A stretch of 64,000 nucleotides of DNA from a bacterium. Lineage in GTDB: Bacteria > Electryoneota > Electryoneia > Electryoneales > Electryoneaceae. Position 1 is the first letter of the stretch; every line of letters begins with the position of its first letter. The stretch covers positions 3,104,001 through 3,168,000 of the forward strand of contig OY769902.1 in assembly GCA_963669175.1 (NCBI GenBank), given 5' to 3'. Below the pieces are notes generated by a model. That model was given only the letters and a program-made list of their open reading frames with translations. It ran no database searches and was not told the DNA's origin. A program made the position numbers and the translations under genes. Below, piece by piece: positions 24,096 to 55,489 of the stretch.

Positions 24096-24324
24096 GCAGA
24101 CAGCAAGCAGCCGGGGCAAATGCCCAGCATCAGTAAACACAGATGAGTAAATCCTTCTAGCCCGAATATTTCATGAACGGAACATGGATATTCATCTTAA
24201 CACAGTTAATATCAACACAATACAACTGATTCATACAGCATTTTTCAGGGGACAGTTTGCTCCGGTATCCCTTTGCGTGCCTATTCCCTGTTTCGCTGGC
24301 AAAATAGGCTGAGAATCGGCAACC

Positions 24325-24571
24325 GCCCCGGCAGGGGCAACCTGTATTAGCCCCGGGCAGCCGCCGTCAGTTTGGCGGCTACCCGGGGAGATAATGCGCA
24401 CAATATATTTACTCCGGAAGGAGTAACCTGATAATTATCAAAAGTATACAGTGGTGATATTTAGGTAACCCGCTGCCGGGGTTGGCAAGTAGCGTACATC
24501 CTATTCCCACCGTGAGCGCCAAACAGACGGCGCTGGACGGTGGGCTAATACAGAGAACCACTGCCGTGGTT
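24325..24571. repeat. Mirror-symmetric three-hairpin palindromic element (PATE/REPIN-like)
   Basis: Inverted pairs CTGTATTAGCCC (24342-53)/GGGCTAATACAG (24542-53) and CGCCGTCAGTTTGGCG (24362-77)/CGCCAAACAGACGGCG (24517-32). Same layout as 53950-54251. Confidence 0.75.
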
Positions 24572-24630
24572 CTTGTACTGGCCATTCCATCAAATACCAA
24601 ATTTGAAATTGCATTGGTGAAATATTCGGG

Positions 24631-53654: not shown

Positions 53655-53884
53655 GGTATGGTATCCTCCCGTGAGTTTAACCGTTTTCAAGCGTTGGATG
53701 CGAGAACAGGCGGTTCGATGCTTTTGGGAGGAACGGGGAGGCAAAGTAAGGATGAACAAGAGTTTGGCTAATGAAACTTCTTTCGAGTTTAACCGGTCAT
53801 TTTTATCTGCCAGGTTTTGGTATGTTAGTGGTCTGTCCGTTTTAGCCTGCTTCAGCAGGCTCTTCTTAGCACCCGGCTTTAGCC

Positions 53885-54280
53885 CTGTCTCTTACCCACA
53901 TCTTCTGAAAGCTGTATCAGTAAAAGAGTTGTGGACATAGCATTTTTAGAATCCCGGCGGGATTCCCTATTTTAGCATAGTGTACAGGCCGTCTGTTTGG
54001 CCTGTACACTATGTCAGGTATTCTAACGAATAATCAACCCTGGAAGGGTTGCATAATACGCGATTCATATTAGTACGTTCAATAAATACAGGAAATAACG
54101 CATTTTATATTCTATACAAACCAATTGGGTGTAAATTATACGTTATGCAACCCTTCCAGGGTTGAGATAAGGTTTGATCTTTTTCGTAGGGTAGACGCTA
54201 AACAGACAGCGTCAACCCTACGCTAAAATATACCACCCCCTCTGGGGTGGCAGAAACACGAAGATGTGAGCAAGAGACAG
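53885..54280. mobile_element. 396-bp non-autonomous IS4-family (IS50/Tn5-like) element
   Basis: 19-bp inverted ends CTGTCTCTTACCCACATCT (53885-903) and AGATGTGAGCAAGAGACAG (54262-80). GGCTTTAGCC is duplicated at 53875-84 and 54281-90. Confidence 0.85.
53950..54251. repeat. Inner three-hairpin palindromic element carried within the IS50-like MITE
   Basis: Inverted pairs TATTTTAGC/GCTAAAATA, CCGTCTGTTTGG/CTAAACAGACAG and CAACCCTGGAAGGGTTGCATAA/TTATGCAACCCTTCCAGGGTTG. Same family as 24325-24571. Confidence 0.8.
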
Positions 54281-54486
54281 GGCTTTAGCCGGGGTGAATA
54301 GAACGTGTAATAATCAGGAGCGCGCTTTAGCGTGCTTTCCAGTACGTAAACTCTGCGTTGGTAAGCACCCTGAAGGGCGCTCAGTATTTTGTGGTATCTT
54401 CACACCTGGCTAAAGCCAGGTGCTAAGAGGGAGCAGGCTAAAGCCTGCTAAAATAATAGAAATAAAGTAAAGATGACAAATGATTT

Positions 54487-54637
54487 CACAAGCCTACAGC
54501 ATCAGTGAAATCGTCTCGCCATTGGGAGTTAGGAATAAAGTATAGATGATAAATGATAAATGATAAATGATAAATGATAAATGATAAATGATAACACAAG
54601 GCTACAACATCAGTGAAATCGTCTCGCCATTGGGAGT
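54487..54637. repeat. 43-bp direct repeat flanking an (ATGATAA)7 microsatellite
   Basis: 54487-54529 vs 54595-54637 (2 mismatches); seven perfect heptamers at 54546-54594. Confidence 0.9.
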
Positions 54638-55489
54638 GAGGGGGAGTTCGGGCATTTCCATGTATGGTTTCCCATCCAGCAACCGTCCCGCTTTTTTCTT
54701 GTTCAGCCCGCCCCATTGTTTGAAGAAGAAGGGGACGTTCTGTTCATGGCACTGATCACGGATGCTTCGAACCCAATCCGGTTGAATGACACGCGCCTGC
54801 GGGCCGGACTCGCCGCCCACGATCACCCAGTGGATATCCGTCAGGTTAAGGTTGTCGATAGGGCCGAGCAACGGTTCGATGGACAGGAAACGAATGGCAG
54901 CCGGTGTGCGTCGTAGATGCTCAATCCGCCAGGTATAATCACGGTTCTCCACACTGACACCCAACCAGATATGAGGTGGTACAGTATCTGGATCTGTTTG
55001 GCCCGACTGCTTGCTGTCGGGAACGCCTGAATCCCTCGAAGAACTCGTGTGGCCCGACTGCTTGCTGTCGGGAATTGCGGAATCTCGTAGCCCGTCCATG
55101 CCTGGACGGGGATCGGACAATACATCTTGATAAATCTGCGGAACCAATTCTTCCAACCGTTCCGCGCGCTTTGTCAGCACCTGGTAAACGTGACGATTGC
55201 ACTGTATCATTACCTCGAACACCCGCTTCACATACTCGTATGGGATGTCCTCGTGAAACAGGTCGTTCATGGAATTGACGAAAATGACCTGTGGTTTACG
55301 AAGGTGGAACGGCTCGCGCAGCACATCCTCATGGCAACGCACCGCAAACCCATCGGCGTACTTCTCCTGTCCCATGGCCTGTAAGCGTTTCGCCATCCGT
55401 TCAGCGTAACAATGTTTGCAGCCCGGGCTGATTTTGGTACACCCTGTAGTCGGGTTCCAGGTAGAAAATGTCCATTCGATTTTCGACAA
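54602..55489 (-). CDS. DUF5131 / phage Gp37-Gp68 family (radical-SAM-like) protein with an in-frame REP insert
   Basis: SKIEWT..TWNPTTGCTKISPGCKHCYA, FVNSMNDLFH, LTKR, WLGVSVE, SIEPLL, WVIVGGESG, FFFKQWG. Probable TTG start at 55489. Confidence 0.88.
   Translation of the reverse strand: MSKIEWTFSTWNPTTGCTKISPGCKHCYAERMAKRLQAMGQEKYADGFAVRCHEDVLREPFHLRKPQVIFVNSMNDLFHEDIPYEYVKRVFEVMIQCNRHVYQVLTKRAERLEELVPQIYQDVLSDPRPGMDGLRDSAIPDSKQSGHTSSSRDSGVPDSKQSGQTDPDTVPPHIWLGVSVENRDYTWRIEHLRRTPAAIRFLSIEPLLGPIDNLNLTDIHWVIVGGESGPQARVIQPDWVRSIRDQCHEQNVPFFFKQWGGLNKKKAGRLLDGKPYMEMPELPLTPNGETISLML
54998..55112 (+). repeat. Three REP palindromes inside the DUF5131 coding sequence
   Basis: (G/T)TGGCCCGACTGCTTGCTGTCGGGAA at 54998-55023 and 55049-55074; a GTAG REP at 55087-55112 identical to 272-297. 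Confidence 0.9.

Follow-up and report, generated by a model that had tools for sequence, protein, structure and literature searches.

A MITE with Tn5-like ends and a Y1-type hairpin doublet as its body, inserted in a hairpin tip of a Y1-type palindromic element

How does a non-coding element with ends close to those of Tn5 come to lie in the tip of a hairpin while carrying further hairpins of its own? The locus that raises this question occupies positions 53841-54452 of the window (the whole stretch of 64,000 nucleotides that was analysed). We will argue that it very probably records two successive non-autonomous insertions, first of a Y1-type outer element and then of an IS50/Tn5-group MITE, which a Tn5-type DDE transposase would have moved in trans into one of the hairpin tips, and that the MITE body consists of Y1-associated arms multiplied as a passenger. 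The observations comprise the anatomy of the locus, a copy census, the target duplications and target spectrum, the homology of the palindromes to Y1 gene flanks, and the Tn5-type transposases of relatives with similar ends. The features are as follows (window coordinates; strand where one applies).

53841-53874: outer palindromic element, left arm, with hairpin Ha AGCCTGCTTCAGCAGGCT at 53844-53861 and the left half-stem of hairpin Hb, CACCC, at 53870-53874
53875-53884: target duplication, left copy GGCTTTAGCC, which is the tip of hairpin Hb
53885-54280, plus strand: MITE assigned to the IS50/Tn5 group, subfamily A, 396 bp, non-coding, one of 44 copies in the genome
53885-53903, plus strand: left 19-bp terminal inverted repeat CTGTCTCTTACCCACATCT
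53950-54056, plus strand: inner Y1-type doublet, left arm, with H1 at 53950-53964, H2 at 53976-54013 (loop GTCTGTTT) and H3 at 54034-54051, followed by GCATAA
54057-54142: A+T-rich spacer of 86 bp separating the inner arms, the site of the Y1 gene in gene-bearing relatives
54143-54250, minus strand: inner doublet, right arm, inverted, with H3' at 54148-54165, H2' at 54180-54227 and H1' at 54233-54250
54262-54280, minus strand: right 19-bp terminal inverted repeat, minus-strand reading CTGTCTCTTGCTCACATCT, an imperfect partner of the left end
54281-54290: target duplication, right copy GGCTTTAGCC
54291-54452: rest of the outer element, with the Hb right half-stem GGGGTG, Hc at 54317-54340 and its mirror at 54364-54381, Hb' at 54403-54422 and Ha' at 54432-54449
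Intact target hairpin: CACCCGGCTTTAGCCGGGGTG

The preliminary description had proposed 19-bp inverted ends and a perfect 10-bp duplication, and both were found: the 396-bp non-coding element at 53885-54280 begins and finishes with the ends at 53885-53903 and 54262-54280, and GGCTTTAGCC stands on both sides. The degenerate 19-mer matches twice in the window, where 0.05 matches are expected, and two matches are reached in 0 of 100 shuffles. Excision was said to restore a hairpin. Indeed, taking out the element together with one repeat copy yields CACCC-GGCTTTAGCC-GGGGTG, which mirrors CACCTGGCTAAAGCCAGGTG at 54403-54422 (21 nt, 95% complementary), and the reconstructed outer element can be aligned continuously with paralogous copies (e.g., 85% over 212 nt to positions 1678722-1678929 of this genome), which stand in as empty sites. 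An orthologous empty site was not found in the sole same-genus genome (G001), which keeps the downstream gene, but with other neighbours and without the outer element. Likewise, no joint skipping exactly the MITE at this locus was seen in the short-read contigs of older runs, which break at repeat borders.

The interior of the MITE (53950-54250) is itself mirror-symmetric, as had been noticed at the outset, with perfect 23-nt arms at 54034-54056 and 54143-54165 and a further pair of 44-nt arms with 77% complementarity. As single-stranded DNA, the whole MITE of 396 nt folds to -90.1 kcal/mol, compared with -36.9 for shuffled sequence (z = -13.3); an Rfam search gave nothing above threshold, the best match being whalefall-1 with 15.8 bits against 37. 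The locus had thus been described as a three-level nest. All three levels are present, but only two insertions took place here: the interior is common to every MITE copy and hence belongs to the MITE itself rather than to a third event here.

Two smaller features adjoin these elements. A minus-strand frame (...SEDVGKRQG*) running through the left end had been considered as a possible remnant of a transposase C-terminus. We reject this candidate, since the frame has 30 codons, ends at a stop codon beyond the element, in the target duplication, and bears no similarity to the Tn5-type transposase found in another genome of the same taxonomic family (G009, discussed below). Immediately to the right of the outer element, window positions 54457-54641 contain an (ATAAATG)n run together with a direct repeat of 72 nt (86% identity).

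The genome is a closed single contig of 5.45 Mb (50% G+C, 95.9% complete), and searching it for both 19-mers, as the preliminary description had advised, recovered 44 end pairs. Of these copies, 42 are uninterrupted and 395-398 bp long, whereas one is split by a 469-bp element and one by a 1312-bp IS4-family IS with different ends; no reading frame of at least 60 codons lies inside the MITE sequence of these two interrupted copies. Subfamily A counts 29 copies with a mean pairwise identity of 99.4%, 13 of them identical, and subfamily B, about 90% identical to A, counts 11 copies (98.9% identity); a few old MITE fragments are also present. The 10-bp duplication is perfect at 36 copies, shows one or two mismatches at 4 and more at the remaining 4. 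Being short, non-coding, multi-copy and uniform in length, the element is a MITE in the usual sense. It was not found in 60 relatives, including the sole same-genus genome, or in plasmid, phage and viral collections. Marine metagenome contigs from another study contain diverged pieces of the MITE and the outer element (90-95% identical); judging from such sequences, relatives bearing both appear to occur in the sea.

Some of the copies have flanks or interiors of their own particular history. At MITE copies 271929, 1183775, 1750582, 2144036, 3926219 and 4781297 the flanking 10-mers are unequal and are often different GGCTNNAGCC words or reverse complements. Unequal flanking 10-mers suggest recombination between MITE copies, and hence inversions or deletions of the intervening DNA; unequal repeats flanking ISRm22 have been explained in the same manner, as recombination between copies (Tobes and Pareja, PMC1525189). 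The 1312-bp IS has a 413-codon frame with a YREK-type motif, ends CAGAACTGTCCGG and a 9-bp duplication, and is present in two copies, at 4494776-4496087 (inside the MITE copy 4494613-4496329) and at about 2420500-2421800. The former sits in the H3 hairpin loop of its MITE copy, and hairpin tips within the MITE are therefore landing sites themselves. The 469-bp element belongs to a non-coding family of 41 near-full copies, many of them 99-100% identical, with ends CCCGAATATTTCA and TGAAATATTCGGG; one lies at window 24161-24629 (genome 3128161-3128629), and the copy at 847912-848380 occupies the H2' hairpin loop of a MITE copy.

Before the ends can be assigned to a transposase group, it has to be asked whether they are natural at all. 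They match the Tn5 mosaic end at 17/19 and 16/19 positions, and the right end matches the IS50 inside end at 17/19, which agrees with the counts first given. With such a resemblance they might be remains of Nextera/Tn5 library adapters fused to genomic DNA by misassembly, and adapter remains containing the mosaic end itself do occur in public assemblies: a scan of public genomes with the degenerate 19-mer, a pattern that also admitted adapter variants, matched at least 100 loci, and most of the matches listed are adapter read-through variants at contig ends. An artefact of this kind would have an exact mosaic end at a contig end, adapter sequence after it and no duplication. Here, by contrast, there are 44 copies within a closed contig, 36 of them with perfect 10-bp duplications, and no adapter sequence follows the ends. 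Furthermore, the copies form two diverged subfamilies, natural relatives possess transposase genes, and the MITE core is found at 23 and 32 times the flank depth (short-read contigs, two runs of one sample). Chimeras had already been deemed unlikely, and the copy census and the duplications refute this explanation.

The scan also illustrates how close the two kinds of sequence are, as no more than 1-3 bases separate natural Tn5-like ends from adapter variants. Among the matches listed, Nextera remains include head-to-head adapter pairs inside long scaffolds (Bittarella, Xanthomonas arboricola). A scaffold of Pseudomonas sp. HS-2, also among the matches listed, has 24 matches to the 19-mer pattern at a regular spacing of 99 nt; the motif is therefore contained in a tandem array. 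The occurrence of near-mosaic-end sequences in natural multi-copy elements outside the Proteobacteria bears on adapter trimming and contamination screens.

The group to which the MITE belongs can be read from relatives with similar ends. In genome G009 a 1476-bp IS occurs twice. Its ends are CTGTCTTTTAGTCACATCT and CTGTCTCTTAGTCACATTT, and it has a stop codon within the right end and a 10-bp duplication in a hairpin; its transposase aligns with Tn5 transposase (PDB 1MUS) with an E-value of 1e-88 over residues 11-467 of 477. A Ktedonobacter genome, found among the matches listed in the public-genome scan, holds MITEs of 137 bp as well as an IS of 1437 bp whose ends are CTGATTCTTACCCACATCT; the IS protein matches 1MM8 (E 1.4e-35) and contains Pfam domains PF14706 (Tn5 DNA-binding) and PF01609 (DDE), and relatives of it are encoded in 3 of 15 same-family genomes, one being a short weak match. 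Since these like-ended relatives encode Tn5-type transposases, the MITE ends are natural IS50-subgroup ends, and the group proposed at first sight is borne out by both elements. The duplication fits as well, as the subgroup is characterized by about 9-10 bp and 10 bp are found at 36 of the 44 copies; that of IS50 itself is 9 bp.

The preliminary description had also foreseen a cognate transposase, and on this point the genome does not comply, as no Tn5-type domain, protein or remnant is detectable in it. Profile searches with PF02281 and PF14706 gave no match in this genome, PF01609 is present in four IS groups that all have other ends, and tblastn with four Tn5-type proteins returned nothing better than E 0.6. 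A parent IS was likewise not found in the 60 relatives or in the plasmid, phage and viral collections; nor did the public-genome matches listed include a full-length IS with exactly these ends. The nearest ends, those of the G009 and Ktedonobacter ISs, are 16-17/19 identical to them. Apart from its outermost ~20 nt, nothing in the MITE resembles the ends of the related ISs, and a protein atlas gave no taxonomic lead. Having no Tn5-type transposase in its genome, the MITE is therefore an orphan of the IS50/Tn5 group. The missing resident transposase marks it as such and is compatible with membership of the IS50 subgroup; orphan MITE families without a resident transposase are common. The 13 identical copies nevertheless imply recent activity, though the genome has no Tn5-type transposase. 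Enzymes of the G009 or Ktedonobacter type are candidates that may act on this MITE, with ends only 16-17/19 alike.

We now turn to the palindromes, beginning with the outer element. It is about 206 bp long and gives 77 BLAST loci, about 26 of them full length, with 74-85% identity; as its copies are only this similar, it predates the MITE. Sequences matching its arms stand in inverted orientation on either side of the Y1 gene at 5361186-5361680 (84-85%, 94-96 nt on each side) and of the paralogous Y1 gene at 1503042-1503494 (83%, ~95 nt), so that, as in REPIN-RAYT systems, a Y1 gene stands between the same inverted palindromes. The outer-linked Y1 protein tested scores 61 bits with the NCBIfam model NF033573 (IS200/IS605; cut-off 55) and 21 bits with the RAYT model NF047646 (cut-off 80), and is thus not of the RAYT family proper. 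Because its arms are shared with the flanks of Y1 genes, the outer element is a gene-less form of an IS200-like Y1 (HUH) unit, and its tie to a Y1/HUH transposase is given by the two genes that its arms flank. One MITE copy lies within the left arm of a gene-bearing outer unit.

The genome has ten distinct Y1-family genes, 8 with inverted repeats in both flanks (e.g., 117-nt arms, 86%, around 5013752-5014225). These genes and their flanks point to several coexisting Y1-and-hairpin-repeat systems in this genome. Tandem-repeat arrays with units of 17-18 bp or ~50 bp adjoin two Y1 loci (2671400-2671960; 1502360-1502500 and 1503600-1503850).

The inner doublet leads to a third Y1 gene, at 2672107-2672558, whose protein scores 70 bits with NF033573 (cut-off 55). 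MITE positions 61-172 and 259-346 match two arms beside this gene, with 80.5% over 113 nt (E 6e-19) and 77.7% over 94 nt (E 1.6e-13) in BLAST. Nine arms, drawn from subfamilies A and B, from an old copy and a fragment, and from the Y1 locus, were aligned. In this alignment 96.4% of the cells pair, and both partners have changed in 11 of the 28 pairs; the covariation score is reached by 0 of 500 shuffles, and slid controls pair at 26-40%. The nine arms also share the unpaired motifs CTATTTTAGC, the loop GTCTKTTT and TCAACCC...GGGTTGCATAA. With arms homologous to the flank of a Y1 gene and stems that covary, the proposal that the MITE carries a Y1/HUH-type palindromic element is well founded. 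A paralogous Y1 gene (5013752-5014225) has H1-H2-H3 arms on both sides, and the 469-bp family is the gene-less form of this unit, its right part matching the arm downstream of the gene. In the MITE, the inner arms face each other over the 86-bp spacer, at the position of the gene.

The arrangement at 2672107 is less regular, as only the upstream arm adjoins the gene, and the second, inverted arm lies 660 bp further upstream, past tandem repeats. This irregularity would suit a reverse origin, in which an old MITE fragment landed beside the Y1 gene. Yet no Tn5-like end with up to 3 mismatches occurs near 2671100-2672200, the arm order is inside-out compared with the MITE, with H3 abutting the gene start, and the paralogous gene at 5013752 bears arms of like build on both sides, independently of any MITE. 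We therefore consider a reverse origin improbable and continue with the Y1 unit as the source of the doublet.

If the doublet stems from a Y1 unit, a resident Y1 (HUH) transposase might have moved the whole 396-bp unit in the manner of a REPIN, with no part for the Tn5-like ends. The covarying Y1-type arms of the interior would agree with such a mover, as would a genome with 10 Y1-family genes and no Tn5-type gene. Transposition of the IS200/IS605 Y1 type makes no target duplication, though, whereas 36 of the 44 copies have exact 10-bp duplications and are bounded precisely by the 19-bp inverted ends; moreover, no inner doublet without those ends occurs, save the arms at the Y1 locus. A Y1 mover is thus very improbable. 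The free population of self-moving doublets that a REPIN would form was not found: outside the MITE copies there is no free inner doublet, only the two arms at Y1 locus 2672107 match, and 57 of 67 H2-type hairpins lie within MITE copies. As the Y1 gene has an upstream arm only and no free doublets were found, mobility of the inner part on its own account cannot be shown. Since the doublet is not found outside the MITE, it reached its 44 copies as MITE cargo.

What remains is the choice of target. Taken together, the 36 perfect duplications yield a palindromic consensus, GGCTTAAGCC (G28 G31 C26 T25 T24 A22 A30 G26 C32 C29 of 36). The preliminary description had predicted that other copies, too, would sit in GGCTNNAGCC hairpins, and this holds for 24 of the 44, which occupy GGCTNNAGCC hairpin tips of the outer family (21 in Hb and 3 in Ha, with flanks read by eye). 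Also by eye, six further copies lie in a second hairpin class, GAATAGCGCGG-N10-CCGGG, and two in hairpins of the 469-bp family. Together with the like-ended relatives and with genome G003, where a Tn5-type IS adjoins ...GCACCCGGCTTCAGCC, the same hairpin type as at this locus, these copies support the view that an IS50-group DDE transposase targets such palindromes.

Another account is a plain sequence preference for the 10-bp palindrome GGCTNNAGCC, like that of Tn5 or IS10, in which hairpin repeats are struck only as carriers of the word. The palindromic consensus agrees with it. The target consensus of Tn5 and IS10 is symmetric, and that of the MITE duplications is similar. In addition, GGCTNNAGCC words are more frequent in the genome than expected (223 versus 84) and lie mostly within repeats. 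Tn5 sites have been described as palindromic with G/C ends (Tobes and Pareja 2006, PMC1525189). On the other hand, a flanking stem of at least 3 bp is present at all 24 occupied GGCTNNAGCC sites compared with 118 of 178 free ones; a choice blind to stems would give (142/202)^24, or ~2e-4, a value to be read with the caveat that the sites are related to one another. Relatives in other phyla, moreover, duplicate unlike 10-mers (GGTTCCATCC, TCATTGATGC, GCCTAAAGGC and CGCTAAACCA), likewise between complementary G/C runs as read by eye. We regard a preference for the word alone as rather unlikely; either the hairpin or an extended palindromic sequence may be what is preferred.

How far hairpin targeting extends beyond this genome is judged from 12 related elements with both ends in hand and from flanks read by eye. 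Seven of the 12 have a perfect 10-bp duplication, and six of these seven duplications, with differing 10-mers, lie between complementary G/C runs (G009, Ktedonobacter, a haloarchaeon; by eye). At 80 metagenome loci encoding relatives of the transposase, inverted ends could be placed in 22, several of them doubtful, and a perfect 10-bp duplication was seen in 3, using a simple end finder on possibly chimeric contigs. It is conceivable, and to our minds nearly an even matter, that a widespread Tn5-type clade (several bacterial phyla and haloarchaea) with 10-bp duplications seizes G+C-clamped hairpin tips whatever the 10-mer, with Y1 hairpin repeats as its natural landing pads. The Y1 doublet would here have become DDE cargo in 44 copies, and traffic between the two superfamilies would run both ways, with the hairpins of the MITE serving as landing sites again.

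From these observations we infer how the chemistry ran, that the transposase came in trans, and in which order and when the events took place. As a first step, the ~206-bp palindromic element, a gene-less Y1 form, would have settled between two genes. Later, the 396-bp MITE would have entered the tip of its second hairpin, the agent being a Tn5-type DDE transposase supplied in trans. By analogy with Tn5, this enzyme would bind both 19-bp ends, excise the element and link its 3' ends to target strands cut 10 bp apart; repair of this stagger would duplicate GGCTTTAGCC. On this reading the transposase clade prefers the 10-bp palindrome GGCTTAAGCC atop a G+C-clamped hairpin, which makes hairpin repeats its main landing sites, and the inner Y1-associated repeat family was brought to its 44 copies by DDE transposition, as a passenger. 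For other repeats of Y1 transposons the same route, multiplication as DDE cargo, could let them spread without an enzyme of their own. The 44 insertions, with their 10-bp stagger and hairpin tips, also make up a clean natural data set on whether a Tn5-type enzyme reads structure or sequence.

Compared with known systems, the MITE is closest to IS50/Tn5 (IS4 family, IS50 subgroup). Its 19-bp ends begin with CTGTCTCTT and finish with ACATCT, the transposases of like-ended relatives can be aligned with that of Tn5 along the full length, and the target is symmetric. In IS50 a stop codon lies inside the right end, as in the IS of G009. Unlike IS50, the MITE has no gene, its duplication measures 10 bp and its targets are strongly biased to hairpin tips; for the IS4 family, the duplication is given as 'about 10 bp' (De Palmenaer et al. 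2008, PMC2266710). Its host also falls outside the mostly proteobacterial list of 19 subgroup members given there (PMC2266710).

A second group for comparison are the ISs that target REPs, namely ISRm22 (IS4 family), IS1397, ISKpn1, IS621 and ISPpu9/10, which, as described by Tobes and Pareja (PMC1525189), enter a repeated palindrome at one set place on its axis of symmetry. The MITE does the same, and as in those ISs (PMC1525189) some copies have unequal flanking repeats, here 8 of 44. It differs from ISRm22, which is reported with 6-bp repeats and its own gene (PMC1525189), in being a non-autonomous IS50-group element with 10-bp repeats, and the palindromes targeted here are those of IS200-like Y1 elements, not classic proteobacterial REPs.

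With the REPIN-RAYT systems, as portrayed by Bertels and Rainey (2011, PMC3116915) and Nunvar et al. (2010, PMC2817692), the genome shares distinct, non-duplicated Y1 genes between inverted hairpin arms and many gene-less doublets. Unlike in those accounts, both Y1 proteins examined score above the cut-off of the IS200 model but below that of the RAYT model, each arm has three hairpins, and the inner family is almost confined to a DDE-type MITE. The small size, the non-coding and multi-copy nature, the terminal inverted repeats and the target duplication are those of prokaryotic MITEs as outlined in a review (PMC10969869). Unlike usual MITEs, the body is not a shrunken IS but a doublet of another transposon superfamily. 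A literature search that had most subscription journals outside its scope gave no paper on a Tn5-like MITE carrying a REPIN or targeting hairpins. The components are all of known kinds, namely a MITE of the IS50 group, repeated palindromes as insertion sites, and hairpin doublets associated with Y1. Unusual are the Y1-type doublet as cargo of a DDE-type MITE, a duplication at hairpin tips that is consistently 10 bp in distant hosts, and the occurrence of 13 identical copies in a genome without a resident transposase.
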